Numbered from the stretch's first letter, positions 9,404-64,000 are shown. The stretch: 64,000 bases of DNA from Elusimicrobiota bacterium (GCA_016218495.1 JACRDU010000162.1:1-64000); one strand, 5' to 3'. The notes: generated from the letters alone by a model not told the origin. Translations and numbers: made by a program.

Positions 9404-9418
9404 CTTCTTAGAGGGGAC

Positions 9419-21646: not shown

Positions 21647-22587
21647 AACTTCAGACGGATGGTCGTGTGGTAGGCCGCGCCGAGGTCCCCGAACGGGACC
21701 CAGGCGAAGTCCACGCCGAAGCGCCCGTAGGAAGCCCCGCCGCCCAGCGTCACGCCGCCGAAGCCTTCCGCATCGGTGTTCGCGCTGTTCCAGCCGCCGC
21801 GCAGGGCCGTCGTCATGGCTCCGAAGGTCCGCGCCGCTTCCGCCCCCAGCGAGACCTGCGGGGAATCGTCTCGCGGGAAGCGGACCTCGACCGAGGCCAG
21901 CAGCCCTTGCGCGGGGCGCAGGGCGCCGCCCGCATATAAGGCGAACGGCAGCGGGGCCGGGCTCGAGCCCAGGCTCAGGCGCCCGCCCCAGTTCCGCCAG
22001 CCGGCGCCGGCGCTCAGCCGCCGCCCGCGCCAGAGCGCTCCGCCGTCGACGGCCGGGGCCCGGGCGCTGGCCGAGTCCAGCCGCTGTTCGACGAGCTTCA
22101 GCGTCCCGCCCACCGCCAGGCCCGGCAGGGCGAGCCGGCCGTACGAGAGGGAGTAAGCGAAGTCGGAGGCGCCGAACGTCCCCTGCGCCGCGTCGGTCTC
22201 GACCAGGCCCCGCCGCTCGATGCCCGACGCAACCAAGGTCTTCACCGAGAAGGCGGCCACGCCCCAGGCGTTGCGCTTGAGGCGGGTGTCCCGCAGAGAC
22301 AGGAGCGGCACCGCCACCGCCCCGAAATCGTGGGCCAGGTCCTGGAAGTGGCTGTCATGGGTGGCCGCCGCTTCCAGCGATTCCAGGAAGGCCAGCCCGG
22401 CCGGGTTGTAATGGGCCGCGTGCAGGTCGTCGGCCAGGCCTCCGAAGGCGTCCCCCATGGCGGCCGGCCGGGCTCCGGCGGGGATCTTCAGGAAGGCCGC
22501 GGCCGAGGTGCCCTTGTCGGCCGCGCCGAACGCTCCCGCATCGGCCGCGGCGCAAGCCAGCAGCAGGCAGAGGAGCCGCGCCCTCAT
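21643..22587 (-). CDS. FadL/PorV-like outer-membrane beta-barrel (module 1 partner of the 3,539-aa CTD protein)
   Basis: Signal MRARLLCLLLACAAADA. FadL hatch-type motif FLKIPAGARPAAMGDAFGGLADDLHAAHYNPAGLAFL. C-terminal ...TTIRLKF. The ATG overlaps the giant-gene stop (ATGA). Confidence 0.65.
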   Translation of the reverse strand: MRARLLCLLLACAAADAGAFGAADKGTSAAAFLKIPAGARPAAMGDAFGGLADDLHAAHYNPAGLAFLESLEAAATHDSHFQDLAHDFGAVAVPLLSLRDTRLKRNAWGVAAFSVKTLVASGIERRGLVETDAAQGTFGASDFAYSLSYGRLALPGLAVGGTLKLVEQRLDSASARAPAVDGGALWRGRRLSAGAGWRNWGGRLSLGSSPAPLPFALYAGGALRPAQGLLASVEVRFPRDDSPQVSLGAEAARTFGAMTTALRGGWNSANTDAEGFGGVTLGGGASYGRFGVDFAWVPFGDLGAAYHTTIRLKF

Positions 22588-25500: not shown

Positions 25501-28500
25501 CCGCGGATGAGGAAGGAACCGTCCGCTGCCAGGGCGCCCACATAGGCGATGGCGGGCGTGCGCGCGGCGACGGAAGGGGACCACGAGGCGCAGGACTGTC
25601 CGGCGCGCGCGAGGGGCCCCGGAGCCCCCGCCGACCCGTCTCCCACCGGCACGAGCTCGACGCGCGCCGCGGACAAGGTCACCGGCGACGAGGATGAGAG
25701 CAGGCAATAGGGGGCCCGCGCGGCGAAGGCGACGAGGCCCGGCAGCGACGACACGGTGACCGAGTACCCGGTCGAGGATATCCGCACCGGCCCCGTCAGC
25801 CGGACCAGGCCAGAGACGGTCTTGCTCCCTCCGGAAAGGTCGAGCAGGGCCTCCGCCGTGGCGGCCGGGGTCAGGGACAGCGCCGCCGAGGCGGAGCGTC
25901 CCGTGGCCGGGTCGAGGAAGGTCCAGCGGTTGATGCCCGACGCCAGCGCCGGCGTCGTCATCGTCAGGCTGGACGGATAGAACTGGAACGACGCCCCGGC
26001 CAGGGCCGTCGCCACGGCCACGGCGGTCTGGGCGCCGAAGGGGTCCGTATGCAGCAGCGCCAGCCGCGCGAAATCGGCGCTGCACGAGCAGGGCGAAGCG
26101 GGCGGCTCGATGCGGACCGACACCAGTCCCCGGGCCGAGGGCCGGGCATACACGAGCCCCACCGACGCGCCCGCGCTGGTGACCCGGACGGATTCGTCGC
26201 CGGCCGGAGTCTTTTCAAACCCGCTGACGACGGCGCGGACATCCCACAGCCCCGGCTCGAGGCCGCCGAGCTGGAACTGGGCCGCGCTCTGGGCCGCGTC
26301 GGTGGAGAGGCGGACGATGCCCGATTCCCTGCGCAGCAGGCGGGGCTCGAAGGCCTCCACGAGCACGGAAAAGCCGTTCGATGAGGCGGCATCCGGGGCC
26401 GGGCCCGTCCCCGCCAATCCCCGGCTGTCGCCCTGGACCGTGACCGTGCCGCGCAGGACGGCCCCCAGCCCCAAGGTCAGGGCCGGTCCGCCCTGGCCCG
26501 TGGCCCCGTCGCCTATGTCGGCCGTCCCGGAGACGAAGAGCGTCGTCGTCGCCGGCAGCAGCCCCGGGGCCCGCGCCGTCAGGGTCCACGAGCCCTGCGT
26601 CAGGCCATAGAGCCGGAACACGCCGCTGGAGGGGACGGTCCCGCTGGAGGCCGCCGGGATGGACAGGCTGGCGAAGCGGGTCGGCACGCTGCTGCCGGAG
26701 GGCGCCGCCGCCACGGCCACCGAGGTGCCGTACGCCGAAGTCGTGACGAGGACGGCCGTCCCGCTCAGCGCGGCCCGGCGGTCGAGGGCCAACGAGACGT
26801 CCGCCGTCGCCGAGGTGGACACGGTCACGGCCGCCGGCCGCGTGCTCAGGCCCAAGCGCGCCACCTCCACCTCCAGGGTATAGACGCCCGGCGGCAGGGC
26901 GAGGACGGTCCAGGTGCTGGCGCTGGCCCCCAAGGCCACGGCCCCGTCGTCCGAGCTCGCCCCCCCGCGCGGGAAATGCAGGACGCCGGAAGCCGCCGCC
27001 GAACCGTCCGCGCCCCGCGCCAGCACGGAGCCGAACACCTCCTCCGGGGAGAGGACGGGCACGGAGGCGTTGACCCTCATGAGCCCGGGAACGGCGAAGG
27101 AGGGCGACCCCGCCGCCCCGCCGGCCGTCGAGGCGGCCACCGAACAGACGGCGGTGGAGAGGCGCACGCCCACGCCTTGGACCATGACGAAGGAGGAGGC
27201 CCGCACGGCATAGCGGGCCCCCTCGTGCAGGCCCCAGACCTTGAACGCACCTGAGGAGTCCGCCGTCGCGGAGGACCCGTAGCCCGCTCCCGGCCCTTCC
27301 ACGCTCACGAAGGCCCCCGCGCCCGACGTTCCGAGGCTGCCGCTGATGAAGGGGCTGGTGGCGACCCTCACCTCGACGGAGGTCCCGGGATTGCCCCCCG
27401 CCCGGACCCTGACGGGGTAGCGGCCGGGAGCGACGAAGGAGCAGGCGCGCGCGCAGGCCACGGCGTCCCAACGGTATGACAACGCCGACGAGGCGTCGCC
27501 CGTCCCGGCCGAGCGCGCCAGCGGGGTCGTGAAGGAGGCTTCCGTGGCCACGGCCACGTCCCAAGGCACGGCCGGGTCCGTGACGCTGAAGCGGACCACC
27601 GCGGACCCCGCCCCGGGGACCAGCAGCACGCTCGTGGCCCCGGCGCTCAGGGTCCCCGTGTCGACCGAGACGGCCGTCGGAGCCACCGAAGAGGCCCGTA
27701 TCAGGGCGGTCCGGAGGGCGTCCACCGCCGAGCCGGCCAGCGTGGCCGTGGCGCGCACGGACTCCGAGTCCACCCCGCTGGTGGAGGTCGTCATATAGAA
27801 CGCGGGGGAAGCGGACTGCCCCGTGGACACCGTCACCGAAACGATGCCTGCGCCGCCGGCCGCGTAGAAGGCGGCCGAGAGGTCCCGGGAGAAGCCGGAG
27901 GCGGCCGGCTGTCCGGCGGAGAGCCCGATGACCACGGCCAGCGTGGAGACGGCGGGGTTGCCGCAGCCGTCGGTGAGGAAGAGCTGCATGGTCGCGGAGC
28001 CCTGAAGCGGGCCCAAGGCGATGGGGGCCCGGTCGGAGAACTCCAACCCGCTGGCCGGACCGGCCGCCAGCGCGACGGCGGGGGCGGATGCCACCGCGAC
28101 CAGAGTCCCCGACTGGGCGCTCCGGCTGCGCACATCGAGGAGGTGGCGGCCCACGGCGCGCGCCGGCGGATAGCCCGTGTAGTAGAAGCGGATGTCCTCC
28201 CCCGGCTTGAAGAGGTTCGGCGCCGCGCTGGCGACGCGGACCGCCAGCCAGTCGCTGCCCAGCGTCACGCTGCCGATGGACGGCGGCGCGAAGAGGACCT
28301 CGGAAGACCCCGCCACGCTCCAGGCCAGGCTCGTCGAGACGACGGCGGCGTAGCCCAGGGGCGGAGGGACGGCGGCCGTCAGCCCCGCCAGCGGCGTCCA
28401 GCCCGGGGGGATGCGCAGCGCCACGGCCCCCCCGCGCCCGAGGCCGGAGTTCCCCACGGTGAAGGTCACCGTGGTGACGACGGCCTGGCAGGCCCCGGTG

Positions 28501-31500
28501 GACACGGGGAGGACGGCCGCCGTCCCCTCTCCGTCGGCAGGGGAGAACTGCAGGATGCCCCGGTTGAATGTGAAGGTGGAGCCGAGCAGGGTGGCCAGCC
28601 CCGCCGGGTTGGAGGCCCTCATCAGGACGAAGTAGTCGCGGCCCGAGGTCAGCACCGAGTCCGGGAACGAGAGGATCCACTCGACGTCGGTCCCGCGGAA
28701 CGGCGTGACCCCGGCCGAGCGGAAGACCGTCGAAGCGGCTGAGAAGGACGACGCCCAGTCGTACCATAAGCCGGTCGAGCCGTCGCGCACGCCCACCGAG
28801 ACATCGGTGACGGACACGCTGTCCTGGGCGCCGCCGGCCAGCCTGCCGCTGAGCGTGCCCAGCGCGGCCCCGCTGGGCAGCGAGAAGCTCAGCACGGGGC
28901 TCGAGGCGGACAGGGAGAACACCGAGAACGTGGAGCTCTGTGCGGCCGGAACACCCGCATTCGACGCGTCGGCCGCCGAAATGGTGTAGAGCCCGGTCGC
29001 CCGGATGGTCAGCCCCGAGAGCGTCACGGACCCGCCGGACAGGGCCTGGGGGGACGGGAGGGTCGGCGATGCCGACGCCACCAGCGAAATCGAGACCGTG
29101 TCCGTCAGGGTCGAAATCAGGTTGCCGAACGGGTCCACGGCGCGTACCAGGACGGAGAACGGCCGGCTGAGGATCTGGAAATCGCTGGTGCCCGTGCGCC
29201 CCGCGGGGGATCCGGGCAGCGCGGCCTCGCCGGGGACCAGGACCTGCAGGGAGGAGTAGGCCGCGGCCTGCACCGTCACCGTGGACCCGGCCGTTCCCGC
29301 CGCCCCGGCGCCCTGCGCCCAGACCAGGGAGGTGGCCGGCGCCGGCTCCGCCACGCGCAGCGTCACCGGGAAGGCGGCCGACCCGGCGCTCAACGCCGCG
29401 CTGGACGGCTCCGTGTCGAAGGTGTCCCCGGTATGCACGGTCGTCGCCGCGGTGGAAGTCCGGACGGGCAGGAAGGCGTTGGAGACCGCGTGCACGGTGA
29501 CCGTGAACGACGAGCCCGCCGTCTGCACAAGCGCCGTGCCGGTCCGTCCGGTGCCCGCCACGAAGGTCTCTCCGGGGGCGATGACCAGCAGGGTCGGCCG
29601 GAACTCGATGCCGCTGTTGCCCCCGTCGTCGCGGGTCAAGCCGTCGTTGGCGTAGAGCAGAGCCCCCGCCGTGGCGTCGGCGTCCCTGACGGCCGCCGCG
29701 CTCATCGTCGAGGTCTGGACGGAGAGCCTGAACGGAGTGCCCGGCAACGCGCTGCGCAGGTCCACCGGGGTGCCGGTCGAGGTCCCGTTGACGCGCAGGT
29801 CGGCCAGGACGTGCAGGCCCGAGGTGGAGAAGGTTATCCCGGCCGACGGTTGGGTCGCCGAGAAGACCGCGGCGTCGAAGCTGGCGGAGAACACCCGGGC
29901 GCCGGGTCCGGCGGAGAGCCCGTTGAAGGCCTGGTGCAGCTTGTCGGCGTAGGCCTGCGTGGACGCCGAGAGGAAGGAGACCGTGGAGCGCTGCGCGGCG
30001 AAGGTCCCGCCCGCGCCCGCCCAATCCCCCTCCAGGCCGAAGGAGGCGTCGGAGGCCTCCAGACGGCCTGAAGTCAGGGCCAAGGCCCCGCGCACCCGCA
30101 GCGCGGTGCCGGGCGCCACGGCCACGCTGCTCGAGGAGGCGACCTCCAGGCCGCGCAGCGCGCTCTGCGGCCCCGGCTCCAGCCGCTGCAGCGCGGAGCC
30201 CGTCATGACCAAAGTGGCCGACGAGACGGAGGCGAAGTCGAAGACGCCCCCGGCTGACACGAGGTCGCCGCCCAAGGTCATCCGGGCCCCGGTCGAGAGG
30301 CGCACCGTCCCCGTCGCCGCCCGGAGCGTCCCATCCACGGCCAGGGAGCCGAACCGGAAGGTGGTGGTGGCGCTGTCGGCGGCGAAAAGGATGTTCCCCA
30401 CCGGCCCGGTGGAGAGCAGGGCGCCCCGGTCGGTGCCGGAGCCGGAGTATACGAGCCAAGAACCGGCGTCGTGCAGGTAGGCCGAGCCCGGGCCGATGTA
30501 GAGCTCTCCGGCCTCGCGCAGGGTCAAGGTCGAGCCCCGGGAGTCAAGCGTCCCCCCCGGGAAGAGGTTGATGGCGCCCGTCGAAAGGGTCATGGACGCG
30601 CTCAGGCGGACCGCGCCGCGCACGTCGACCTGGCCGGTGACCGACGAGGCGCTCGACACCAGCACCCGCCCCCCGGCGGGGCTCTGCCAGAGCACGCGGT
30701 GGGCGCTCGAGGAGGTGTAGACCGCCCCCGCCGTCACCCATCCCGACGACGAGCCGACCACAGAAATGGAACTGGCGCCCCCGTCGAACACCGCCCCCGC
30801 CAGGACCGTGAAGGTACCGCGCAAGACGAGCGCGTCGCGCAGGAAGGCGCCGGCGCTGGAGTTGGCCACGACCAGCGAGTCAAGCGCCGCGCCGGCCAGG
30901 GAGAGTTCCTGCAGCGAAGCGCCCTCCAGGCGCACCGTGGAGGAGGCCGTCGTCGGTCCGGGCCCGCCGCGGCGGTAGAGCCCCTCACCCAGCCGGAGTA
31001 CCCGGCCGGAGATGTCGAAGGCGCCGCTGAAGAGCTCGAGGGGGCCTTCGACGGCGGCGTCGGCCGCGAGGACGACCCCCGCCGGGTTCGAGGAGACGAG
31101 GTGCCCGAACACCGAGGCGCTCGACGCGGCGATACGCTGCGCCGCGGTGCCGTCCAGCAGCACCGTCCCAGAGGACCCCCGGAAGGAGCCGCTAGAGGCG
31201 CTCAGCGCGCCCCGAAACGAATGGGTGGCTGTCCCCAGGTCGCTCAGGCCGTCGACGAAGGTCACCCCGCTGGAGACCGCCACCGCGGTGGCCCAGGTGA
31301 CGCCGCCCGGGGAAGCCAGCTCGAGGTAGTGGAAGCTCGTCGCCCCCGCCAGGATGCTCTGCGCGCCTGGCCCGACGAAGGCCACCGTGGCGCCGGAGGC
31401 GGAGAAGGTCCCCGACGAAGACCAGTTCCCGCTCAGCTCGATGCGCCCCAGGCCCGCCGACAAAGACGAGCCGGCGGCGACCTCGAGGTCCCCGGCGACG

Positions 31501-33203
31501 GCGGTCTTCGTACTGAGGCCCGGCAGCAGGACGGCGCCGGAAGAGCCGACGACGGACAGGCTGCCGAAGGAGCCCCAGCGCGCGCGCTGGACGGAAGTCC
31601 CGTCGAGGATATAACGGCTGCCGCCCGAGTCCACCCGGCCCAGTTGGGTCAGGTCCCCGCCGAAGCGCGCCGTCACGCCGGCCGAAACGGTCATCGTGGA
31701 CCCCGCCTTGACCGTCATGTTGCCCCGAATGCTGACCGAAGAGGCCAGCGTCAGCGACGCCCCGGTCTCCACGAGGAGATGGTTGAAGTCCATCCCCGGC
31801 AGGACGCTCAGGGACTTCCCGAACCCGGTCATGGTCACGGTACCGGCGGTGAGCGTGAAGGTCCCCCCGGTCTGGACGAAGTCCCCGCCCATCTTCATCT
31901 CGAGGCTCCCGACGCTGAGCGTGCCGCCCCGCATCTCGAAACGCCCCGTCACGCTCGAGAACAGGGTGTTCCAGACCAAGGTCCCCTGGTAGCCCGATTC
32001 CAGCGTCAGCGTGCCGATGGGCAGGTTCCCGAAATCCCAGGTGCACGATTTGGCGGAGGCGGTAGAGCCGAAGACGGCGTTCTCGAAGGCCTGCGGCGCG
32101 ACATTGCCCACCCAGTTCGCGGAGTCCTTGCAGTCGGACGACCCCGCCCCGGTCCAGACCTTGGGGTCGACGAAGGCGCTGCCGGCCCCTCCATTGCTTC
32201 CCGGGGGCGTACCAGGGCCTCCGGCTCCCGCTCCCGACGAGATGGCGATGGTGGCCAGGTTCAAGCCCGTCGTGACGATGGCCACCCGGCCCCCGCCGCC
32301 GCCGCCGCCGGCCGGGCCGGCGCCGCCGCTGCCGCCCGCGGCGCCCCGGGCCAGCATGGAACCCGTGCCGGAGAGCACGGCGGCGCGGAGCAGTATGGCC
32401 CCTCCGGAGCCCCCCCCGCCGGCCTGGGAGCAGCCCCCCGCGCCGGCCGTCCCGTCGGCCAGGAACGCCCCGTTGACCGTGGCCGTTCCGGCGGTGACCG
32501 TCAGGAGCCCTCCGCCCGCGCCCCCGAAGCACGGAGCCAGGCCCCCTCCTCCCCCGGAGCCCAGCGTCGCAGGCAGGCTCACGGTGCCGTAGGCGCTCCC
32601 TCCGTTGACCGCCAAGCCGCCGTTTCCGCCCGCTCCTCCGTGGCCGCCGCCGCCGGCGCCGCGGCCGCCGCTGCCCGACCCGCCGCCTCCCGGACCCGTG
32701 CCGGCCGAAATGGCGCTCCCGCCGGGGAAGCCCCGTCCGGTGGCCTGCACCGTGGCCCCCGCCTGCAGGTCGAAGACGTCGGCCGAGATGGTGACGGCCG
32801 TCGTCGACTGGCTGACGGGCCCGTACTGCTCGACGAGTCCGCCAGACGAGACGCTGAAGGTCCCCGCCCGCGCCGTATGGGTGGAGAGGAAGGAGAGCAC
32901 CGAACCGCTGGAGACGCGCAAAAGCCCGGCCACCAGCGTCCCCGTCGAAAGGCGCAGTTGGGCCGTCGAGGCTCCGCCCAGGTCCAGGGAGGCCGCGACG
33001 ACTGCGGCCGCCGCCGTGGCGTCCACCCGGGCCCCCGACGAGATGGTCACGTCCGAAGCGGCGCCCGGGACGCCGGCGGGGCTCCAGTTCGCCGGGTCCG
33101 CCCATGTCGCGCCGTCCCCCCCTCCGGTCCAGGACACGGGCGCCCCGGCGGCCGGGGCGGCCGCGAGGAAGGCGAGGGCGCACAGGGTGCGGCGCAGGGC
33201 CAT
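22584..33203 (-). CDS. giant (3,539 aa) secreted adhesin-like protein: Gly-rich beta-helical / autotransporter-passenger-like repeats, Ig/CarboxypepD_reg-like domains, T9SS-type C-terminal sorting domain
   Basis: Single uninterrupted ORF. Signal MALRRTLCALAFLAAAPAAGA. GGxGGxG-rich N-terminal 1.1 kaa with recurring TLxxxG(T/S)L beta-strand repeats. C-terminal NFPNPFD...WDGANDAGKDVASGLYIGQV...FFKMAVLK (Por_Secre_tail / FlgD-Ig-like). Confidence 0.85.
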   Translation of the reverse strand: MALRRTLCALAFLAAAPAAGAPVSWTGGGDGATWADPANWSPAGVPGAASDVTISSGARVDATAAAAVVAASLDLGGASTAQLRLSTGTLVAGLLRVSSGSVLSFLSTHTARAGTFSVSSGGLVEQYGPVSQSTTAVTISADVFDLQAGATVQATGRGFPGGSAISAGTGPGGGGSGSGGRGAGGGGHGGAGGNGGLAVNGGSAYGTVSLPATLGSGGGGGLAPCFGGAGGGLLTVTAGTATVNGAFLADGTAGAGGCSQAGGGGSGGAILLRAAVLSGTGSMLARGAAGGSGGAGPAGGGGGGGRVAIVTTGLNLATIAISSGAGAGGPGTPPGSNGGAGSAFVDPKVWTGAGSSDCKDSANWVGNVAPQAFENAVFGSTASAKSCTWDFGNLPIGTLTLESGYQGTLVWNTLFSSVTGRFEMRGGTLSVGSLEMKMGGDFVQTGGTFTLTAGTVTMTGFGKSLSVLPGMDFNHLLVETGASLTLASSVSIRGNMTVKAGSTMTVSAGVTARFGGDLTQLGRVDSGGSRYILDGTSVQRARWGSFGSLSVVGSSGAVLLPGLSTKTAVAGDLEVAAGSSLSAGLGRIELSGNWSSSGTFSASGATVAFVGPGAQSILAGATSFHYLELASPGGVTWATAVAVSSGVTFVDGLSDLGTATHSFRGALSASSGSFRGSSGTVLLDGTAAQRIAASSASVFGHLVSSNPAGVVLAADAAVEGPLELFSGAFDISGRVLRLGEGLYRRGGPGPTTASSTVRLEGASLQELSLAGAALDSLVVANSSAGAFLRDALVLRGTFTVLAGAVFDGGASSISVVGSSSGWVTAGAVYTSSSAHRVLWQSPAGGRVLVSSASSVTGQVDVRGAVRLSASMTLSTGAINLFPGGTLDSRGSTLTLREAGELYIGPGSAYLHDAGSWLVYSGSGTDRGALLSTGPVGNILFAADSATTTFRFGSLAVDGTLRAATGTVRLSTGARMTLGGDLVSAGGVFDFASVSSATLVMTGSALQRLEPGPQSALRGLEVASSSSVAVAPGTALRVRGALALTSGRLEASDASFGLEGDWAGAGGTFAAQRSTVSFLSASTQAYADKLHQAFNGLSAGPGARVFSASFDAAVFSATQPSAGITFSTSGLHVLADLRVNGTSTGTPVDLRSALPGTPFRLSVQTSTMSAAAVRDADATAGALLYANDGLTRDDGGNSGIEFRPTLLVIAPGETFVAGTGRTGTALVQTAGSSFTVTVHAVSNAFLPVRTSTAATTVHTGDTFDTEPSSAALSAGSAAFPVTLRVAEPAPATSLVWAQGAGAAGTAGSTVTVQAAAYSSLQVLVPGEAALPGSPAGRTGTSDFQILSRPFSVLVRAVDPFGNLISTLTDTVSISLVASASPTLPSPQALSGGSVTLSGLTIRATGLYTISAADASNAGVPAAQSSTFSVFSLSASSPVLSFSLPSGAALGTLSGRLAGGAQDSVSVTDVSVGVRDGSTGLWYDWASSFSAASTVFRSAGVTPFRGTDVEWILSFPDSVLTSGRDYFVLMRASNPAGLATLLGSTFTFNRGILQFSPADGEGTAAVLPVSTGACQAVVTTVTFTVGNSGLGRGGAVALRIPPGWTPLAGLTAAVPPPLGYAAVVSTSLAWSVAGSSEVLFAPPSIGSVTLGSDWLAVRVASAAPNLFKPGEDIRFYYTGYPPARAVGRHLLDVRSRSAQSGTLVAVASAPAVALAAGPASGLEFSDRAPIALGPLQGSATMQLFLTDGCGNPAVSTLAVVIGLSAGQPAASGFSRDLSAAFYAAGGAGIVSVTVSTGQSASPAFYMTTSTSGVDSESVRATATLAGSAVDALRTALIRASSVAPTAVSVDTGTLSAGATSVLLVPGAGSAVVRFSVTDPAVPWDVAVATEASFTTPLARSAGTGDASSALSYRWDAVACARACSFVAPGRYPVRVRAGGNPGTSVEVRVATSPFISGSLGTSGAGAFVSVEGPGAGYGSSATADSSGAFKVWGLHEGARYAVRASSFVMVQGVGVRLSTAVCSVAASTAGGAAGSPSFAVPGLMRVNASVPVLSPEEVFGSVLARGADGSAAASGVLHFPRGGASSDDGAVALGASASTWTVLALPPGVYTLEVEVARLGLSTRPAAVTVSTSATADVSLALDRRAALSGTAVLVTTSAYGTSVAVAAAPSGSSVPTRFASLSIPAASSGTVPSSGVFRLYGLTQGSWTLTARAPGLLPATTTLFVSGTADIGDGATGQGGPALTLGLGAVLRGTVTVQGDSRGLAGTGPAPDAASSNGFSVLVEAFEPRLLRRESGIVRLSTDAAQSAAQFQLGGLEPGLWDVRAVVSGFEKTPAGDESVRVTSAGASVGLVYARPSARGLVSVRIEPPASPCSCSADFARLALLHTDPFGAQTAVAVATALAGASFQFYPSSLTMTTPALASGINRWTFLDPATGRSASAALSLTPAATAEALLDLSGGSKTVSGLVRLTGPVRISSTGYSVTVSSLPGLVAFAARAPYCLLSSSSPVTLSAARVELVPVGDGSAGAPGPLARAGQSCASWSPSVAARTPAIAYVGALAADGSFLIRGVPPGYYRVRIPGDLDGSPGNGDEAAPVEASLAVTADTALDLRLGPGGSVQGALALPAGAPAKRRLDVMLSSLDGTELRRVSVEAAPGSPAAFAVNSLPDGEFVLAVADAGTPRAYGARPRLISLNGGAADAGTVSLEALGSIRLRLALERRSSSGTLELVPIDGSDRTLLPAELRIAAVASPWREGGFFPAQGAFCGPRGCARPDFDAAGTILIGGVFAGVYDVELVPGPGGGVDAAAAVRAGVRVAEGQTAELGVVKLRSAATVAGLLTDSSGGLPAGGVPVTARPSVGGLSSLRRPARTVRSDGAGRFSLGGLDPDVRFYDIVAAARPEDPSEPPPAYDETVIAGVDVLSTAALSIPLRAAPYSVSGRVLAADGGQLLGASDGAVAEPGAELYLYPEGRPPTEGPLGNTVSRTAPDGSFSLSGLSAGAYRLTVEALGCAPRTLPVRVTAASPSLGTITLQRAASLSGVLRRPDGGAPGEDEVRRVFAATADLSEVLEGGLLRDSAGRSAARYRVGGFVPGKTYRLIVLTADDEPYTPPEASALSFSTTTESRVLDVVVRPPAPRITAKSRRSGGAFLIEFNSSRPLRARTAADDDPARLVSTVSASGALSGLELSADRRKVLGIYTPGVSESSFTLRFAARTEERDPDAADSAEFLAVATAAFFSGVDGYQSTQLSNLTGGTLSIEGDPGRVALPKGAFILDASSSASIALRRTDELLLGARGLAAAGLSAEEATRTSLRFGTDAYPAGLVRAMAATPPDVRPAGPYYDVAVSSGLGSRLAKPARLSLGYAAGAEPARLNVYWYNEAANAFVLQQDVTGAPLELDALNKTVSLSVDHFSTFVLFDAAAAVISGNAYDGGVLSAYNFPNPFDLRLKTVTPIHGAAIQTVRGTLVRIAVPAGQGGDGRLLVFSAAGERVRTVDLGQLQGGRSYYQAWDGANDAGKDVASGLYIGQVKVGGRSAFFKMAVLK

Positions 33204-33206
33204 TGG

Positions 33207-33665
33207 CTACTTGGACTGCTGCCTCGACATGAACTTCCGGCGCTCGGCCAGCTTCTTCATCTCCTCGGCGAAGGCCGGGTTCTTCTTGAGCATGAAGGAG
33301 AAGTCGGCCGAGAGGAGGACGAACAGGCGCGTCGCCTCCTCGCAGACCACGCTGGCGTTGCGCGGGTCGCGCGACAGCAGGGCCATCTCGCCGAAGAAGT
33401 CCCCCGGCCCGAGGCGGGCCACGGTCTTGGAGAGGAAGATGTACCTCTTGAGCCGCACGGAGACCGCCCCGTCGTAGACGATGTAGAAGGCGTCCCCCGG
33501 TTCGCCCTGATGGAAGACCGTCTCCCCGGGCTTATAACGGCAGAGCATGATGTACTTCACTATCTGCTCGAGCTCCCCGACGTTGAGCGGCGCGAAGAAC
33601 TCGACCTTCCTCATCGCCCGGGCCAGGTGGCCGTAGTCCGCGTCCGACATCGCTACCTTCTCCAT
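33207..33665 (-). CDS. stand-alone cyclic-nucleotide-binding (cNMP/CAP-effector) domain protein, no DNA-binding domain
   Basis: 152 aa. cNMP-binding beta-roll motifs GETVFHQGEPGDAFYIVYDGAVSV and FGEMALLSRDPRNASVV. The stop is 3 nt before the giant-gene ATG. Confidence 0.8.
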   Translation of the reverse strand: MEKVAMSDADYGHLARAMRKVEFFAPLNVGELEQIVKYIMLCRYKPGETVFHQGEPGDAFYIVYDGAVSVRLKRYIFLSKTVARLGPGDFFGEMALLSRDPRNASVVCEEATRLFVLLSADFSFMLKKNPAFAEEMKKLAERRKFMSRQQSK

Positions 33666-33674
33666 TTTCGCCTC

Positions 33675-34892
33675 CTAACGCTCGAATGCGACCCCGAAGA
33701 GCAGCGAGGTCGCGTCGTGGTTGAACCGGTGGAATCCCTCGTAATGGTCGTTGGCGCGCGCCCATGAGCGCTCCACCCGGGCCATCAGGCCCAGGCCCGG
33801 AGCGAGCGGCCAACGCCCCTCCAGTGACAGCGCCCAGGTCTGTTCCAGCAATCCGACGCCGCTGTAGGCGCCGATGCCGTCCCGGGCCGAGCGGTGCGGC
33901 CAGCGGCGCCAGCCGTAGCGCAGCCCCCCCGCCAGGGAAGCCGGGGCGCGCGGGTCCCCCCAAGACGCGCCGAAGTCCGGCCCGAGCTTCCACGCCGCAT
34001 AGCTGTAGCAGCGCTCCTGGAAGCGCGCTCGGGCGGGGTCGAAGCAGGCCTGGTCGGAGACCGTGTCTTCGAACTGCACGCTGAGCCCGCCGTGCAGACG
34101 GCGGTTCGGGCGCGGCTCGCCCGAGGCCCTGAGCCCGGCCTCGGCGGAGGAGACCAGGTCCCCCCGGGTCGAGTCGCCGAGCGACCCGTCGGAGCGGACC
34201 AGCTTCTGGTGGAGGAAGCGCCGGACCTGCAGCCCGGCCTTCAGGTCCAAGGCCAAGCCCTTGGGCAGGGGGAGCAAGAGGCCCGCGCTCAGCAGGTGGG
34301 CGTCGAAGTCGAGGACCCCCGAGCCGGCCAGCTCGCGGGCCAGCGGCCGGCCGCGCGGGTCGAGCGGGGCGGAGGATTCCAGCGAGTTGAAGTTCGGGAA
34401 GAAGGTGCGCGACAGCGCGTAGCCGGCCCAGAGCCGCCGCCCGGCCGACAGGTCCCATTCCAGGTCCACGCCCCCGTCGACGGTGTGGCTGTCGAAGAGC
34501 CCGGACAGCCAGTCCTCGTCCTTGGTCTCCCGCAGCAGGCGCATGCGCCAGCCGGCCCGGGGCTTGAGGAGCCAGCGGCCCCGAGCGGGGGCGTAGACGG
34601 CTTTCAGCGAAACACGGTGCTCCATCGCCTCAGAGAACAAGGTCGTCCCGCCCGCCGTGTCGAGCGCCGATTCGACCCCGCTGTAGGAACCGCCGAGGAC
34701 GGGGAAGAAGGTCCAGCGGGGCCCCAGCGGCACGGCCGCCGCGGCCGAGCCCGATGCGCTGCCGGAGAAGGCCCCCGGCCTGCCGTCGGTCTGCAGGCGG
34801 CCCCCCAGGAAGCGCGCGGAAATGACGGTCTCCAGCGCCCGCGCGGGGCCCGGGAAGGCGAGCAGGGCGCAGAGCAGGGCCCGGACGCTCAC
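33675..34892 (-). CDS. outer-membrane beta-barrel protein, unknown family (paralog of 62142..63383). GTG start overlapping the upstream stop.
   Basis: Signal VSVRALLCALLAFPGPARA. Alignable to the 62142 ORF (LRETKDEDWLSGLFDSHTV vs LKETRDETWGKGLFDTQTV; FFPNFNSLESS vs RFPNFKSLESK). The longer 688-aa ORF form has a junk N-terminus overlapping the upstream gene. Confidence 0.6.
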   Translation of the reverse strand: MSVRALLCALLAFPGPARALETVISARFLGGRLQTDGRPGAFSGSASGSAAAAVPLGPRWTFFPVLGGSYSGVESALDTAGGTTLFSEAMEHRVSLKAVYAPARGRWLLKPRAGWRMRLLRETKDEDWLSGLFDSHTVDGGVDLEWDLSAGRRLWAGYALSRTFFPNFNSLESSAPLDPRGRPLARELAGSGVLDFDAHLLSAGLLLPLPKGLALDLKAGLQVRRFLHQKLVRSDGSLGDSTRGDLVSSAEAGLRASGEPRPNRRLHGGLSVQFEDTVSDQACFDPARARFQERCYSYAAWKLGPDFGASWGDPRAPASLAGGLRYGWRRWPHRSARDGIGAYSGVGLLEQTWALSLEGRWPLAPGLGLMARVERSWARANDHYEGFHRFNHDATSLLFGVAFER

Positions 34893-36385
34893 GGCAGGGC
34901 TCCCGTCATGAAGGCCAGGGCCGGGTCGAGGCGCAGCTCGATGGTCCGCCCCGAGAAGAGCGAGGAGGAAACGCTCTGCTCCAAGCCGGCCCCCAGCAGG
35001 ACGGCGCGGAAGGCCGCCGCGCCCGAGCCCGCCGGCAGCGCGGCGGAAGCGACCTCGCCGCCGCAGAGCCCGCGCGAGACCGTGGACAGCGAAGAGCCTT
35101 CGGCCCAGGACGAGCTCAAGACCTGCAGCCGAGCGCTGGGAGCGGGATAGGTGACCGAGACCGCTCGCGCGGCAAGCTGGGCGCCGTTCATCAGGGCGTG
35201 GGCGGCGGTGAGGGCCCCTCCCGTGAAGGGGTCGGTGACGGTGGATGGGACGGCGTCGCCGTTCACCAGGATGTTCGCGCCCGTCCAGCCGGCCGCCAGG
35301 CGGCCGTTTACATAGACCCCCCACCGGTCGAAGAGGGAACGCCAGGCCGAAGCGCCGGCCGCCGAGCGGAAGTCCCCCGTCACCGGGTCGAAGACGGAGG
35401 AGACGTCGTCGGCGCCGTCGGCGTTGGCGTTGAGGTCGACCAGGTGTCCGCCGTCGGCCGTCTCCATCAGGACGTCGGGGCCGTTGGAGCGCGCCGACTC
35501 GTAGGCGGTCAGGGTCAGGGCGGGGGCCGCGCCCGCCGTGCCGGCCAGCGCCCGCAGGGCGCCCGAGATGTCCCCCGGCACGGCCGCGCTGAAGGTGCCC
35601 AGGTGGTAGAGGTAGTCGGTCCGGCCTTCCCGGCCGTTCACGGCGACCAGCTCGAGCTGGTCGGCCCGGGGTCGCCTGACCCAGGACTCGGCGCGCACCC
35701 GCGCTCCCCGAGAATCCATCGCCGTGCGGCCTTCCTCCCATTCCAGGCGCCGCAAGGCCTCGGCCCCGGAGGCATAGAGGCCTTCCCGGAAGGCGTCGGA
35801 TTCCAGCTCCGCCCGGATGCGCTCGCGCAGGCCTTCGCGGCGGAGGGCCGCGGCGGCCGGCATCCTGACGGGGACCTCCAGCCCGCGCAGGTCGATGCGC
35901 ACGCTCTCCCCGGAGCGCAGCAGGAGTTGGTGCCCGCGGTTGTCCTCCACCCCCAGCTCCCCCTCCGCCGACTCCACCGTGGTCCGGCCTCCGGCCAGGA
36001 CGCTGACCCTGAACTCCCCGCCCCGCACGGTCAGGGCCGCGGCCGGCGTGCGTACCTGCACCACACGGCGCCCCACATCGGCGAAGCGGAAGACGGACAC
36101 GCCGATCTCCACGCGGGCCAGGAAGCGCTCACCCCCGACGTCCTCCAAGGTGAGGACCGTGTCCTCCTGCAGCAGGGCGGTGTCGGCCCCGCCCAGCTTG
36201 AGGAAGGCGGACGATTGACGGCCCGTCCTGAGGGCGGCGCCGGGGCCCAGGGCGGACGGGATCTTCTCCAAAGTCGCCCAAGGGGCGTCCAAAGCGGGCC
36301 TGAGCTGGAGCAGACCGGACGCTCCGGCGACAGACGGCCCCGCCGGCGCGGCAGCCGCCGCCGGGCGCGAGAATAGGGCCAGCAC
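34889..36385 (-). CDS. secreted FecR-domain protein (paralog of the partial gene at 63391..64000)
   Basis: GTG start (a possible ATT start 6 codons upstream would give a better signal peptide). FecR-like block FLKLGGADTALLQEDTVLTLEDVGGERFLARVEIGVSVFRF...VRTPAAALTVRGGEFRV. C-terminal TADGGHLVDLNANADGADDVSSVFDPVTGDF matches the 63391 ORF. Confidence 0.6.
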   Translation of the reverse strand: MLALFSRPAAAAAPAGPSVAGASGLLQLRPALDAPWATLEKIPSALGPGAALRTGRQSSAFLKLGGADTALLQEDTVLTLEDVGGERFLARVEIGVSVFRFADVGRRVVQVRTPAAALTVRGGEFRVSVLAGGRTTVESAEGELGVEDNRGHQLLLRSGESVRIDLRGLEVPVRMPAAAALRREGLRERIRAELESDAFREGLYASGAEALRRLEWEEGRTAMDSRGARVRAESWVRRPRADQLELVAVNGREGRTDYLYHLGTFSAAVPGDISGALRALAGTAGAAPALTLTAYESARSNGPDVLMETADGGHLVDLNANADGADDVSSVFDPVTGDFRSAAGASAWRSLFDRWGVYVNGRLAAGWTGANILVNGDAVPSTVTDPFTGGALTAAHALMNGAQLAARAVSVTYPAPSARLQVLSSSWAEGSSLSTVSRGLCGGEVASAALPAGSGAAAFRAVLLGAGLEQSVSSSLFSGRTIELRLDPALAFMTGALP

Positions 36386-36463
36386 CAGGGCTGGGAGGAG
36401 GGCTCTTACCCTAATAATGCTCTAAGGGTACGCGCCCCGCGCGAAGCGCGCAATACCTCAACG

Positions 36464-36537
36464 GTGTCAGACTTTCGGAACTTTCGAAAGTTCGAAACTC
36501 TGTCGGAACTTTCGAAAGTTCCGAAAGTCTGACACCA
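36464..36537. repeat. AT-rich nested inverted repeat. 30-bp perfect stem GGTGTCAGACTTTCGGAACTTTCGAAAGTT...AACTTTCGAAAGTTCCGAAAGTCTGACACC containing two copies of the 18-bp palindrome GGAACTTTCGAAAGTTC(C/G). Candidate terminator and/or operator.
   Basis: Read directly. Lies immediately after the TAA stop of the 36540 gene and about 80-150 bp upstream of the 34889..36385 gene. Flanked by small GC hairpins (GCGCGAAGCGCGC). Confidence 0.8.
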
Positions 36538-36539: not shown

Positions 36540-37502
36540 TTAGAATTTCAGGAGGAGGGAGAAGCGGAAGGTGTTGCCGAGGTCGCCGTAGGGGACCCAG
36601 GCGAAGTCGAAGCCGGCGCGGTAGAACTGCACGCCGGCGCCCATCGTGAGGAGGTTCTGCCCGTCGTTGTCCATGCGGTGGGTGTTGACGCCGGCCCGCA
36701 GCGCGCCGGAGACGTTCGCCGTGAACGGGTGCAGGTACTCGACCCCGCTGCCCACGAACAGGTCGGTGTCGCGGTACTTTGTCACGTCCAACGAGGCCCG
36801 GACCCGCTTGGTCAGCTGGGTGCCGGAGCCGACGACGAAGCCGCGCGGGAGCGGGTCGGAGACTCCCGCGAAGGAGATCTCGCTGCCGATGTTCTTGACC
36901 ACGGCGGAGAGCCAGACCGGCCGCCCCCACACGCTGGGCAAGGTGAACAGGCCCCCGAAATCGGTGGCGAAGGCAGAGGCCGAGTAGCTGTCGATGGTCT
37001 CGTGGATGAGCTTGCCGGTGACGCCCAGGCTCAGCCGCGGAGACAGCCGGTAGGCGTAGGAGAGGTTGTAGGAGTAGTCCCCGGCCCCGAAGCTGCCGGT
37101 CGGCGAGCGCGTGTCGGCGGTGTGGCGCTCGATGTCGGAGATGGAGAGGTTGTAGATGGCCGCTCCGATGGCGTGCTTGGAGTGGTCGGCCTGGCGGCCC
37201 ATCGGGTAGACGAAGCCGGCGAACTCGTAGCTGATGCCCTGGAAGTGCTCGGCATGCGCCGCGGCCAGCTGGCTGGTCGACAGGCGGGTCATGGCCGCCG
37301 GGTTGTAGTACACCGCGTAGACGTCGTCGGCCAGAGCCGAATACGCCTCGCCCATCGCGCCGGCGCGGGAGCCCGCGCCGAGCTTGAGGAACTGGGCGGC
37401 GCTGGTGCCCGCGTTGGGGTTGATGGCCAGGGCCGGGCGCGCGGCGGCGCAGACGAGCCCGAGGGCCGCCAGCAGCGCGAAGAGTCGGACCCGGTTGGTC
37501 AC
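36540..37502 (-). CDS. FadL/PorV-like outer-membrane beta-barrel (module 2 partner of the 8,185-aa CTD protein)
   Basis: Signal MTNRVRLFALLAALGLVCAAARPALA. FadL hatch-type motif FLKLGAGSRAGAMGEAYSALADDVYAVYYNPAAM. C-terminal FRFSLLLKF. ATGA overlap with the giant-gene stop. Paralog of 21643..22587. Confidence 0.65.
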   Translation of the reverse strand: MTNRVRLFALLAALGLVCAAARPALAINPNAGTSAAQFLKLGAGSRAGAMGEAYSALADDVYAVYYNPAAMTRLSTSQLAAAHAEHFQGISYEFAGFVYPMGRQADHSKHAIGAAIYNLSISDIERHTADTRSPTGSFGAGDYSYNLSYAYRLSPRLSLGVTGKLIHETIDSYSASAFATDFGGLFTLPSVWGRPVWLSAVVKNIGSEISFAGVSDPLPRGFVVGSGTQLTKRVRASLDVTKYRDTDLFVGSGVEYLHPFTANVSGALRAGVNTHRMDNDGQNLLTMGAGVQFYRAGFDFAWVPYGDLGNTFRFSLLLKF

Positions 37503-40500
37503 AGGCCGCTCCCCTTGATGACGGCCATCTTGTGGTAGACGCTCTGGCCGTTCACCGTGTACTCCAGGATGTATACGCCCGAGGCCACCGGCCGGCCCGC
37601 GGCGTTCGTGCAGTCCCAGAAATCGTAGTTGTGCGTGCCGCCGTTGGCGGTCTTGTGGAACTCGTCGACCAGCTCGCCGGCGACGTTGTAGATGCGGAAG
37701 CGGTGGTCGAGCGGCGTGACGGCGCCGGGCGCGGCGTAGTGGATGACGGTGCCGACGCCGGTCAGCGCGCCCGCCGCGCAGGAGCCCTCGGCCACGTTGC
37801 AGTTGATGGTGCGGCTGCGGCAGTCGAACGGGTTCGGGAAGTTGAAGGCGATGGGCTTCTCGTCGCGGAAGGTGGCCGCCCCGACCAGCCCCGGCGCCCC
37901 GTTGAGGACGACGAAGGTGGAGAAGTGGTCGACCGAGACCGTGATGGTCTTGTTGATGGTGTCGATGCGCTTGTTGTTGGTCTCCTCGACCGGCGCCTGG
38001 CCGTTCGAGATGCTCCAGATCTTCAAAGCGGAGACGGAGGTCGTCGTCGCCAGCGAGGTGTCGTAGGGCAAGGTCAGGTCGACGGGCTTGGTGAGCTGGG
38101 CCCGGATGCCCAGCGGCAGGAAGACCTCGTAGAAGGAGCTGAACGGGTTGGCCTTGAAGGCGTTGTTGGTCGCGGTGGAAGCCGCCAGCGGGCCGTAGGC
38201 CGAGGCCTGCAGGGCCTGGATGCGGGCCGGCACGTAGCCGAGCTGGGCCATGGACAGCTGGGCCGCCTGGTTGGCGTCGAGCGAGCCCTGGACGCCGACC
38301 TGGACCTTGTTCTTGTCGCCCAGCTTGCCCTGGCAGTTATAGTTCGTGTCCCCGGCCGAGCAGCCCTCGAAGGAGCCGGGGGCGAAGTTCAGGCCGAACT
38401 TCTCCGAGTCGCCCTGGCCCTCGACGCGCTCGGAGGTCTGCAGGTTGACCTGGCCGCCCTGCGAGTTGTTGACCGGCTTGTTGGCCTGGGAGGTGATGAC
38501 GCGGTTCGAGCCGTTCTGCGACACCGCGGCGGCGAAGTCGAAGACCTTGAGCAGGGTGAAGTTCTCGCCCGTGGTCGGGTCGACGGTGGCCATGACGGCG
38601 TTGAGCTTGATGGAGAAGTTCTTCTCGGAGGCCGAGCCCGCCCGGTACACGACCGTGATTTCCTTGCGGTTGGACTCGATCTTCTTGTCCGAGCCGCCCA
38701 GCAGGGCGCCCTGGCCGTTCGGCGCGGTGTAGTTCGTCCCGTTGGAGGCGAAGCTCGAGACGCTGACGATGGTGTCGACGTCGTCGTCGGAGGCCAGGAG
38801 CTTGCGCAGCGGCTGCGAGCAGGCGATCTTGACCTGGAACTGCCCGTTGCCGAGCGCCTTCTCCCTGGAGTCCGCGTAGCAGTCCGGCGCCGTGCGGCTG
38901 TAGGTCAGGTTGACGGTCTTGGTCGTCGTGCTCTCGGCGGCCGAGAAGGATATCCCCTGGCCTTCCGCCGGGTAGACGACGTCGAGGTCGTCGCGGTGCG
39001 GCGGGAGGATGACCACGTTGTAGCTGACGCCCGGCTCGAAGCCGGAGATGGAGTAGCTGTTCACCGTGCGCGCCGTCTGGTCGATGGAGACCGAGCCGAT
39101 GATGAACTTGGAGAAGTCGCTGTTGGCGGCGGCCACGCCGCCGACCTCCTCGGTGCTGGGCGAGGTGCCGTTGGGCAGGAGGATGCGGCCCTGCAGCAGG
39201 CCGCCGCGGGCCAGGGTCAGGCCGGGGGCGCACAGGCCGACCACGGTGGTCGTCGAGATGCAGAAGCTGCCGGCATTGACGGTGACGGTGGCCGTGGCCA
39301 CCCCGAAGCCCAGGCTGACCGCGCGGATGGTGTAGCTGCCCACGGCGACGCCCGGGAAGCTGAAGCTGCCGTCGGAGAGAGTGTCCACCTCGGTGTCGCC
39401 CAGCGGGTTGTCCAGCGACACGACCCCGAGGGGCTGGAGGAAGACGGCCGCGGCAGGATAGCCCTGGTTCTCGCCGAACGGATAGGCGAGCGGGGACCCG
39501 TCGTCGGTCAGCACCTGGCCGGTCACGGACCCCAGCAGGGCGTTCAACTGGATGTTCAAAGGAGTGGTGGACACCGCCAGGCGGATGAGGTCGACCTGGG
39601 CGTAGCGTACGCCCGAAGCGGCCTGGTTGCCGTCGCGCGGCGCGACGGTGACGTCGTACTGCGGCGATACGAAGGTGGAGACCCAGAGGGTGAATTCGCC
39701 GTTGGCGTTGGAGAAGGTCTCCACCACCAGGGACACGTCGCCGTGCGAAGGCTTCGCCACCAGCTTGATGTTGCCCAGGGCCGTGGTGGTGGAGGCGGCG
39801 TCCACCAGAGTGCCCTTGATGGAGGTGCCCTGGTTCATCGACAGGGTACCGACGTCCTTGCGCTCGAAGGGCTGCAGGGACAGGCCGCCCAGCTCGACGG
39901 GCGAGTAGTTCTGCGACCCCTGGGCCAGGAAGGCCAGGTCCCACTTGTCCTGGAAGACCTTCAGGTCGTAGGGGGTGTCGGGGAAAAGCGGGCCGACCAG
40001 GAAGGTCCCGTCGGCGCGGATGGGGCGGGCGGAGACGCTGGAGGCCGCCTGGGCGAAGCCGCCCTCCACCCACGGGTTCGCCGTGGCGGTGATGCGCAGG
40101 TTCGGCGGCAGGACCTTGGCGTTGCGCTCGGTGAAGAGCTCGCCCGAGGCGGCGTCCTGGAGCTTGCCGGTCAGGTAGCCCGCCCGGCGCATGAGGACGT
40201 CCTGGCTGACCAGGTTCGCCGCCAGGCCGCCCGGTGACTGCGCCGAATCGGGGAAGCGGATGGGGCGGCCCAGGTACTTGGGCTCGGAGGCCGCGTCCTC
40301 GACGCTCAGGGTGTAGAATTCGCCGGCCGGCAGGCCTTCCAGGCGATAGCTGGTGGAGGCGGCCGTTACGCCCGCGGCCGAGTTGCCCAAGGCCACGGTG
40401 GTGGAGCGGACCACCTCGAGGCGGCGGTTGCGCAGGGTCAGACGCAGCGTCCGGAAGTCCTGGACACCGGCGGCCAGGGTCAGGACTCCGGTCACCGAGT

Positions 40501-63390: not shown

Positions 63391-64000
63391 CTAAGGTATC
63401 AATCCCGACTGCATCAAAATCTTCGGCTCGTACACCAGGTCGATCCGACGGCCCCCGAACTCCGAGGCGGTGATGATCTGCTGGTAGTTGAAGTCGAGCA
63501 GGCGCTTCTTGTATTCGGCCCCGTTCGTCAGGCCGGCGAAATCGGAGTGCTTGGCCACGGTCCCTTTGTCGTCGATGATATAGTTGTCGAACTTGTCCCA
63601 GATGGTGCCGCCCACGTTCTGCCGGTAGACGATGTCGTGGAAGGAGCCGGGCTCGCGGTTGCCGGTGCAGAAATCGAGGTTGGTGCAGTTGGGCGAGGAG
63701 AGCAGGGCGAGGTTCGTCCCCGTGAAGGTCCGGTCGGCCATGCTGGTGATGTCGGCCCCGTTCGTCCAGCCGGTATGCTGGACCCCGTTGAACTTCAGGG
63801 TGTAGACATTGAAAAGGGTGGAGAAGAAGGCCGTGCCGGCCGGCAGCGCCACGAAGTCGTTGACCGCCGGGTCGAAGGCCTTGGTCACGTTGTCGGTGGC
63901 GTCGGCGTTCGCGTTGAGGTTGACCTGATGCCCTCCGGTCGCCGTCTCCAGGACGGTGTCCGAGGTGTTCGACCAGGCCGTCTGGTAGCCGGTCAGGAAA
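63391..64000 (-). CDS. secreted FecR-domain-family protein, 3' part only (gene continues beyond the window). Paralog of 34889..36385.
   Basis: The frame is open to the window edge (the listed ORF begins at an internal GTG). TATGGHQVNLNANADATDNVTKAFDPAVNDF aligns to TADGGHLVDLNANADGADDVSSVFDPVTGDF of the module-1 gene. Confidence 0.5.
   Translation of the reverse strand, partial: FLTGYQTAWSNTSDTVLETATGGHQVNLNANADATDNVTKAFDPAVNDFVALPAGTAFFSTLFNVYTLKFNGVQHTGWTNGADITSMADRTFTGTNLALLSSPNCTNLDFCTGNREPGSFHDIVYRQNVGGTIWDKFDNYIIDDKGTVAKHSDFAGLTNGAEYKKRLLDFNYQQIITASEFGGRRIDLVYEPKILMQSGLIP

Follow-up and report, generated by a model that had tools for sequence, protein, structure and literature searches.

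A predicted single-domain cyclic-nucleotide receptor encoded immediately upstream of a giant exported protein in uncultured Elusimicrobia

Introduction

To our knowledge, nearly all bacterial cyclic AMP (cAMP) signalling that is understood operates through transcription factors of the CRP type. Free single-domain cyclic-nucleotide-binding (CNB) proteins are common in annotations, and we know of almost none with a known target. The gene considered here encodes a protein of that kind and lies on the minus strand, at positions 33207 to 33665, of a 64,000-nucleotide stretch of DNA from an Elusimicrobiota bacterium (GCA_016218495.1, JACRDU010000162.1:1-64000), referred to at its full length as the window. 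It is wedged between the gene of an outer-membrane beta-barrel and that of a giant exported protein, giant B, in a group of genes termed module 1; a second group in the window, module 2, contains another giant, giant A. The original prediction read this arrangement as second-messenger gating of adhesin export or display. What would a predicted cytoplasmic nucleotide receptor be doing in an operon of exported proteins?

A separate gene for a single-domain protein

Sequence analysis and structural modelling establish 33207..33665 (minus strand) as a real, separate gene for what is predicted to be a cytoplasmic single-domain cyclic-nucleotide receptor. The gene and its two junctions are as follows.

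33207..33665, minus strand: CNB gene, single-domain cyclic-nucleotide-binding protein, ATG start, 152 amino acids
33671..33676, minus strand: Shine-Dalgarno sequence AGGAGG of the CNB gene, 5 nucleotides before the ATG, overlapping the barrel stop codon
33204..33206, minus strand: spacer CCA between the CNB and giant B genes, 3 nucleotides, translational-coupling junction

The genes of this region all lie on the minus strand. The CNB frame has a GC content at third codon positions (GC3) of 0.96, against 0.37 at second positions, in a window of 70% GC. The stop codon of the upstream barrel gene (TAG, 33675-33677) leaves a spacer of 9 nucleotides (33666-33674), and beyond the CNB stop codon (TAG, 33207-33209) giant B opens with an ATG at 33203; the spacers of 9 and 3 nucleotides given originally are exact. 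With these distances and no terminator predicted between the genes, co-transcription is likely. The accompanying statement that receptor and giant are likely co-translated is better worded as "translationally coupled". Purine-rich sites comparable to AGGAGG precede the CNB start in 8/8 orthologous module loci. No canonical Shine-Dalgarno sequence was found in the window 5-10 nucleotides before the giant B ATG.

PF00027 (cNMP_binding) matches residues 43-129 of the protein with E=6.8e-22 and 77.7 bits (cut-off 27.5), covering positions 3-89 of the 89 in the profile. The Pfam scan found no other domain and no helix-turn-helix (HTH; PF13545 or PF00325), and no signal peptide, transmembrane or hydrophobic segment was found in the protein. 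AlphaFold2 modelling with 60 homologues gave a mean predicted local distance difference test score (pLDDT) of 90. The model comprises a short N-terminal strand, helices at 8-20 and 29-36, a beta-roll (39-118) with the cassette helix at 93-96, a B helix (119-128) and a long C helix (130-151), and the protein ends at residue 152 with nothing further. Pfam and the model both bear out the description of a stand-alone CNB protein that lacks an HTH or other output domain. Foldseek searches of the PDB returned CNB domains exclusively, namely those of protein kinase A regulatory subunits (PKA-R), PKG, MloK1, the N-domains of GlxR/CRP and cyclic-nucleotide-gated (CNG) channels, with target-normalised TM-scores of about 0.9 to the MloK1 and PKG domains. 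By sequence, the best single-domain matches fall on the CNB domains of two bacterial channels, MloK1 and SthK.

An intact ligand pocket

The Gly-Glu ... Arg-x-Ala cassette and the lid residue are present in the protein: FGEMALLSRDPRNASV. Their codons are located as follows.

33348..33395, minus strand: phosphate-binding cassette F91-G-E93-M-A-L-L-S-R-D-P-R102-N-A-S-V106, placed by the MloK1 alignment and by orthologue conservation
33237..33239, minus strand: lid arginine R143 of the C helix, equivalent to MloK1 R348, invariant in 60 sequences and present in 85/87 orthologues

From the cassette through the C helix the alignment to MloK1 runs without gaps, and MloK1 numbering minus 205 gives the window numbering. 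F296, E298, M299, R307 and R348 of MloK1 correspond to F91, E93, M94, R102 and R143, and S308 and A352 correspond to N103 and S147. In MloK1 the C-helix lid closes over the nucleotide, as is expected for the CNB protein too, R348 is the lid arginine and chief determinant of nucleotide affinity, and S308 and position 352 modulate the affinity for cGMP (PMC4076524).

Residue conservation was counted over 87 orthologues, and the invariance of the lid arginine was scored over 60 sequences. G92, A95 and L96 are each found in all 87 orthologues, R102, A104 and R143 each in 85, and E93 in 84; the cassette glutamate and arginine are intact and not degenerate. Position 103 is Asn, Ser or Thr in 42, 35 and 7 of these sequences, and position 147 is Ser or Thr. 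Since S308 of MloK1 is replaced by Asn and A352 by Ser, nucleotide selectivity may differ from that of the channel. The alignment shows the predicted pocket to be intact and under strong purifying selection, with contacts that match those of the cAMP-binding domain of MloK1.

A conserved place in front of the giant gene

The CNB family comprises about 86 clusters of single-domain proteins of 148-157 amino acids, and nearly all named members come from metagenome-assembled genomes (MAGs) of Elusimicrobia. Scans of genome and metagenome contigs with the CNB protein were dominated by generic CNB domains (PGDFFGEM) and gave 7 useful loci (L011-L015, L094 and L095). The order FecR-like gene, barrel, CNB gene and giant B (about 3,500 amino acids) recurs in 8 other Elusimicrobia loci, where the CNB proteins are 55-83% identical to that of the window. 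The insertion thereby occupies the identical place in all of the following.

L001: module order, CNB identity 83%
L003: module order, CNB identity 64%
L011: module order, CNB identity 63%
L176: module order, CNB identity 62%
L093: module order, CNB identity 57%
L009: module order, CNB identity 57%
L174: module order, CNB identity 55%
L094: module order, CNB identity 55%

Six further pairs of CNB and barrel homologues were found, the two members of each pair presumably lying on one contig. Across the other module loci the barrel is 34-63% identical and the giant N-terminus 41-61%.

The distance from the CNB stop to the giant start, taken as the first in-frame start codon, lies between -62 and +16 nucleotides in 8/9 module loci. 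Outside the window the two genes overlap out of frame, as ATGA in L174 and L176 and by 8 nucleotides in L003, or are separated by gaps of 6 to 16 nucleotides. In L001 the called start of the giant lies 71 nucleotides downstream, yet the frame of its signal peptide opens directly after the CNB stop. In the window the CNB and giant B genes share one frame, parted by the TAG and one codon. Each giant of the module loci opens with a signal peptide of its own. Among uncultured Elusimicrobia, one group has the CNB gene tightly coupled to and conserved upstream of the giant.

In L176 the giant is split into open reading frames (ORFs) of 541 and 2,351 amino acids.

The module 1 operon

The CNB gene is the third of five in a minus-strand operon (FecR-like, barrel, CNB, giant B and PorV/PorQ-like). 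The other four products are exported; the CNB protein is not.

34889..36385, minus strand: FecR-domain periplasmic protein, 498 amino acids, first gene of module 1, PF04773 at 25.1 bits (cut-off 24)
33675..34892, minus strand: outer-membrane beta-barrel, 405 amino acids, signal peptide, about 16-18 strands, AlphaFold2 pLDDT 85, all beta
22584..33203, minus strand: giant B, 3,539 amino acids, signal peptide, CarboxypepD_reg repeats, C-terminal domain resembling FlgD_ig and the C-terminal domain (CTD) of type IX secretion system (T9SS) cargo
21643..22692, minus strand: PorV/PorQ-family outer-membrane protein, ORF of 349 amino acids, last gene of the operon, NF033709 at 107 bits (cut-off 90)
36462..36537, minus strand: hairpin with a 34-bp stem upstream of the FecR-like gene, minimum free energy -84.7 kcal/mol, z -10.3

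FecR-like orthologues in related module loci have 495-511 amino acids, and the GTG start of the barrel gene overlaps the FecR-like stop codon as GTGA. The barrel had at first been drawn as an ORF of 688 amino acids. This was over-extended: comparison with the orthologous loci divides it into the 498-residue FecR-like gene and the 405-residue barrel. The latter has no sequence match in Pfam, NCBIfam or the PDB, and Foldseek with its model retrieved generic outer-membrane barrels only. The C-terminus of giant B matches FlgD_ig (PF13860) at 29.3 bits (cut-off 27) as well as FlgD models; TIGR04183 is not among its matches. The true start of the PorV/PorQ-family gene is probably nearer 22587.

A scan of 21-38 kb for promoters and terminators gave nothing above shuffled expectation, and the Rfam gathering scan of the whole window gave no riboswitch or other RNA family. 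The hairpin sits in the AT-richer gap of 154 nucleotides between the module 2 PorV-like gene and the module 1 FecR-like gene, and is likely the boundary of the two transcription units. It carries two copies of an 18-bp palindrome, GGAACTTTCGAAAGTTCC, which occurs in none of the related loci examined, and might serve as a terminator-like boundary or as an operator, or else be a small mobile repeat. The related loci do not share inverted repeats in front of the FecR-like gene; among them only L176 has one, a perfect repeat of 29 nucleotides at 3558-3618, about 30 nucleotides 5′ of its FecR-like gene and unrelated in sequence. At the other end of module 1, a plus-strand pair (18759-21646) is convergent on the operon and consists of a third FecR-domain gene (455 amino acids, 20279..21646) and a gene for a PDZ/beta-helix protein of 597 amino acids.

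Module 2 and type IX-like features

Module 2, also on the minus strand, repeats the plan of module 1 minus the CNB gene.

63391..64000, minus strand: C-terminus of the module 2 FecR-like protein, cut by the window end
62142..63383, minus strand: module 2 barrel, 413 amino acids, 31% identical to the 405-residue barrel
37499..62056, minus strand: giant A, 8,185 amino acids, C-terminus passing TIGR04183 at 25.4 bits (cut-off 23)
36540..37502, minus strand: module 2 PorV/PorQ-family gene, NF033709 at 163 bits (cut-off 90)

A family profile search of the window found no second CNB copy, so module 2 lacks the gene, as had been noted. Its counterpart of the CNB site (62057-62141, minus strand) holds a Shine-Dalgarno-like AGGAGG right behind the barrel stop and a mini-ORF of 22 codons that starts with GTG and ends 7 nucleotides before the giant A start. 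This mini-ORF is doubtful because the AGGAGG lies only 1 nucleotide from the GTG; the interval may be the remnant of a lost gene.

Behind each of the two giants in the window lies a PorV/PorQ-family gene. The 64-kb window contains none of the core T9SS translocon and motor genes (SprA/Sov, PorK/L/M/N and PorU), and T9SS is described in reviews as confined to Bacteroidota.

Other genomic contexts of the family

CNB genes also occur near PorV-like, giant or FecR-domain genes in other arrangements. In L005 (54% CNB identity), giant A and PorV are followed by the CNB gene, 5 nucleotides after the PorV-like gene, and then by a PGM-enolase flank. Positions 1-12400 of this locus are syntenic with the window, where the same flank lies beyond module 1, and its CNB gene appears either to have outlived module 1 or to predate it. 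In L015 (7903-20420, 39%) the order is HisRS, CNB, PorV-like and then a giant of more than 2,891 amino acids with FG-GAP repeats; a full CRP-type regulator with CNB domain and HTH is encoded two genes upstream of this CNB gene. L091 (59%) has a FecR-domain gene, a gene for an exported protein of 260 amino acids, the CNB gene and NUDIX. The exported protein was considered as a barrel homologue and rejected (hhalign probability 0.2% against the 405-residue barrel), so that L091 shares only the FecR domain with the module. In L012 (58%) DnaG and RpoD are followed by the CNB gene and the contig end.

In a neighbour-joining tree the module-linked CNB proteins form one large clade and the unlinked ones a sister clade. 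Orthologues of the sister clade are 45-53% identical to the window protein. Some adjoin MTHFR/TilS or a methyltransferase gene, and three loci of Elusimicrobiales (L007 and L092, both at 9780-10456, and L095 at 1203-1876) pair the CNB gene with a DUF2007 gene for 74 amino acids, with an overlap of 4 nucleotides in L007 and L092. DUF2007 carries the annotation of a putative signal-transducing protein and is a candidate partner of the CNB family in this clade. No more than 8 positions differ consistently between the module and non-module clades.

A possible source of the ligand

The original prediction also drew in a distant gene of the window as part of the signalling system.

1115..2833, minus strand: class III cyclase::TPR::HD-GYP protein with the intact HD-GYP motif HHENFDGSGYP

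The cyclase has the Lys/Thr specificity pair seen in the adenylyl cyclases CyaB (3r5g) and CyaC (1wc1), without the Glu/Gly pair of the guanylyl cyclase Cya2, and on these residues is predicted to make cAMP. Fused as it is to an HD-GYP domain, the protein could both make cAMP and degrade a cyclic dinucleotide. The gene lies 18.8 kb past the operon end, behind housekeeping genes. A tblastn search of 20 related loci with the window protein found no homologue within 10 kb of the CNB gene in 19/20, and the sole match was an unrelated FIST-domain class III cyclase in L009 (34-2034, minus strand), 8 kb upstream of the CNB gene. With that distance and no conserved linkage, the proposed tie between cyclase and adhesin operon is weak. 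The cyclase is a possible unlinked source of ligand, not a component of the system.

Comparison with known systems

The CNB protein resembles the MloK1 (Mesorhizobium loti) and SthK channels in sequence, in structure and in the residues equivalent to E298, R307, F296, M299 and R348. It differs from them as a free protein of 152 amino acids without a pore, and the match covers only channel residues 225-351; membership of this channel type was rejected for want of a transmembrane pore domain. PKA regulatory subunits and Epac, also among the high-scoring matches, offer a precedent for the ligand-dependent holding and release of a partner protein, and in function the CNB protein would be nearest to such domains that work by protein contacts. 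Both are, however, eukaryotic and built of several domains, with CNB domains in tandem plus docking or inhibitor segments, and no kinase or guanine nucleotide exchange factor is encoded as a partner at the locus. CRP/FNR factors have the same effector-domain fold, and the C helix of the CNB protein is equivalent to the CRP dimerisation helix. The protein falls far below every CRP/FNR equivalog cut-off in NCBIfam (40 bits for CRP, cut-off 266); with no HTH, it was rejected as a member.

CbpA of Pseudomonas aeruginosa (Endoh and Engel 2009, as cited in the review PMC11139211) is a cAMP binder other than a transcription factor, with no known target. Its likeness to the CNB protein as a non-transcriptional cAMP binder is one of description. 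CbpA reportedly contains a further CNB-like domain that is degenerate, is found at the cell pole and has its gene outside any envelope or secretion operon. TIGR03896 (cyc_nuc_ocin), with CNB proteins beside an export system, is an annotation-level precedent for cyclic-nucleotide control of secretion. Its members have about 317 amino acids and accompany ATP-binding cassette (ABC) bacteriocin exporters, not PorV-like or giant modules; the 152-residue CNB protein scores 30.5 bits (cut-off 161.05) and was rejected as a member.

In the LapD/LapG/LapA system of Pseudomonas fluorescens, a non-transcriptional receptor for cyclic di-GMP (c-di-GMP) governs the fate of a giant adhesin. This is the analogy behind the original second-messenger idea. 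LapD is a transmembrane protein that relays c-di-GMP signals to the periplasm and acts on a type I cargo, whereas the soluble CNB protein has no way of crossing the inner membrane. It has PF00027 only and neither transmembrane helices, HAMP nor a degenerate GGDEF-EAL, and LapD-type membership was rejected.

T9SS cargo operons with a PorP/PorV-family partner, such as SprB/SprF, share with the module a secreted giant whose C-terminus resembles a sorting domain, and behind it a PorV/PorQ-family gene. Type-B CTD proteins are reportedly anchored by PorP-like proteins (Gorasia 2022). The host, in contrast, is an Elusimicrobia MAG and not a member of Bacteroidota, and the window shows no core T9SS genes. 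We know of no CNB gene in a T9SS cargo or PorP-type operon, and a literature search for Elusimicrobia turned up no publication that treats either T9SS-like modules or this CNB family. The CNB protein itself is of a known kind; its conserved operon context is undescribed.

Proposed function and its rivals

We tentatively favour, at a little short of an even chance, the reading that the CNB protein links cAMP levels to the making or exporting of giant B. The ligand would most likely be cAMP, because an adenylyl cyclase of the Lys/Thr type is encoded in the window, with cGMP as a second possibility. Binding would close the C-helix lid, as in MloK1, PKA regulatory subunits and Epac, and so switch the binding of the CNB protein to a partner on the cytoplasmic side, which would in turn tune synthesis or export of the giant. 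Ribosomes that finish the CNB gene would probably re-initiate on the giant gene, and both products would then be made together. Because all other operon products are exported, the candidate partner would be either the N-terminus of the nascent giant or a component of the cytoplasm or inner membrane that is encoded elsewhere. For the same reason, and lacking a signal peptide, the CNB protein would act from the cytoplasm and not on display; the gating of surface display originally envisaged is topologically unlikely. Gating of the giant by a protein-protein effector is nevertheless plausible. A sharper version, in which the CNB protein is a dedicated cytoplasmic gatekeeper that, depending on cAMP, engages either the giant pre-protein at its nascent N-terminus or, from the cytoplasmic side, a T9SS-like or Sec component, and so licenses translation-coupled export, is unlikely.

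Several observations weigh against a module-linked role. Module 2, in the same window, has no CNB gene. None of the operon partners has a cytoplasmic domain, and no direct partner is evident at the locus. Residues 103 and 147, read across the 87 orthologues in the light of the MloK1 data (PMC4076524), give no decision between cAMP and cGMP, which are not distinguishable by sequence because position 103 varies between Asn, Ser and Thr. The CNB gene of L012 stands behind rpoD, that of L091 is kept without a giant, and that of L005 is retained in an otherwise syntenic locus with neither FecR-like gene, barrel nor giant B. The sister-clade orthologues sit in unrelated contexts with no module genes near, and the CNB family is therefore not intrinsically a component of adhesin modules. 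The same placement of the sister lineage makes a serious rival of the view that the protein is a general, lineage-wide small cAMP receptor whose target, for example a DUF2007-type protein, is encoded elsewhere, the operon providing co-expression at most. This is possible, if rather doubtful. It would account for a family kept at one size throughout its clusters, for the DUF2007-CNB pairs, for the lack of module genes near the CNB gene in L010, L013, L014 and L175, for the persistence of the gene without giant B in L005 and L091 and for the mismatch in topology with every operon partner; none of the positions that distinguish the clades falls in the ligand pocket. Against it, the place between barrel and giant has been held over the deep divergence of both neighbours, and the CNB/giant junctions are tight or overlapping throughout. 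Hitch-hiking is also hard to reconcile with the three further arrangements beside PorV-like, giant or FecR-domain genes.

The remaining explanations concern the nature of the protein. CNB-fold domains of the CRP/FNR superfamily bind diverse effectors (PMC10187061), and this diversity, together with the Asn found at residue 103 in nearly half of the orthologues where Ser, Thr or Ala is usual, would suit a domain that binds a ligand other than cAMP or cGMP, or a ligand-independent scaffold like some CRP/FNR-type effector domains. Such a role is improbable in view of the near-invariant cassette and lid arginine, which contact ribose, cyclic phosphate and base, and of best single-domain sequence matches to the cAMP-binding MloK1 and SthK. 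The strong Shine-Dalgarno sequence of the CNB gene, the lack of a canonical one before the giant ATG in the window and a CNB stop that abuts or overlaps the giant frame in all module loci could instead mean that the ORF is mainly a ribosome-loading leader and its protein incidental. A leader, however, would not preserve a fold of 150 amino acids with near-invariant ligand contacts over 87 orthologues, and the gene persists in loci with no giant downstream, which makes this explanation very improbable. The shared frame of the CNB and giant B genes in the window also recalls the possibility, raised in the original prediction, that a sequencing error cut an N-terminal domain off the giant, and a chance ORF in GC-rich DNA might be suspected too. 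Both artefacts were rejected and have a negligible probability. The CNB protein is not a split N-terminal domain because the junction frame differs between loci, with out-of-frame overlaps in L174, L176 and L003 or gaps elsewhere, and because the giants start with signal peptides, which are necessarily N-terminal; the CNB gene has a Shine-Dalgarno sequence of its own. The 87 orthologues of uniform length, the conserved pocket and the GC3 value likewise speak against an accident of composition.

Implications

If the gatekeeper reading were true, the CNB protein would parallel, with cAMP and ahead of export, the c-di-GMP control exerted through LapD, in a phylum without a described type IX-like secretion. 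If the link between receptor and giant is functional in the broader sense, it would represent post-transcriptional cAMP control of surface-protein production, and would help to define an undescribed envelope module of Elusimicrobiota in which a giant with a T9SS-like tail is accompanied by FecR-like, barrel and PorV-like proteins. If it is not functional, the family would still constitute a defined, phylum-wide small cAMP receptor with a searchable partner. In either case the intact pocket, the fixed and coupled position and the recurrence near PorV-like, giant and FecR-domain genes in several orders make this CNB family a clean lead.

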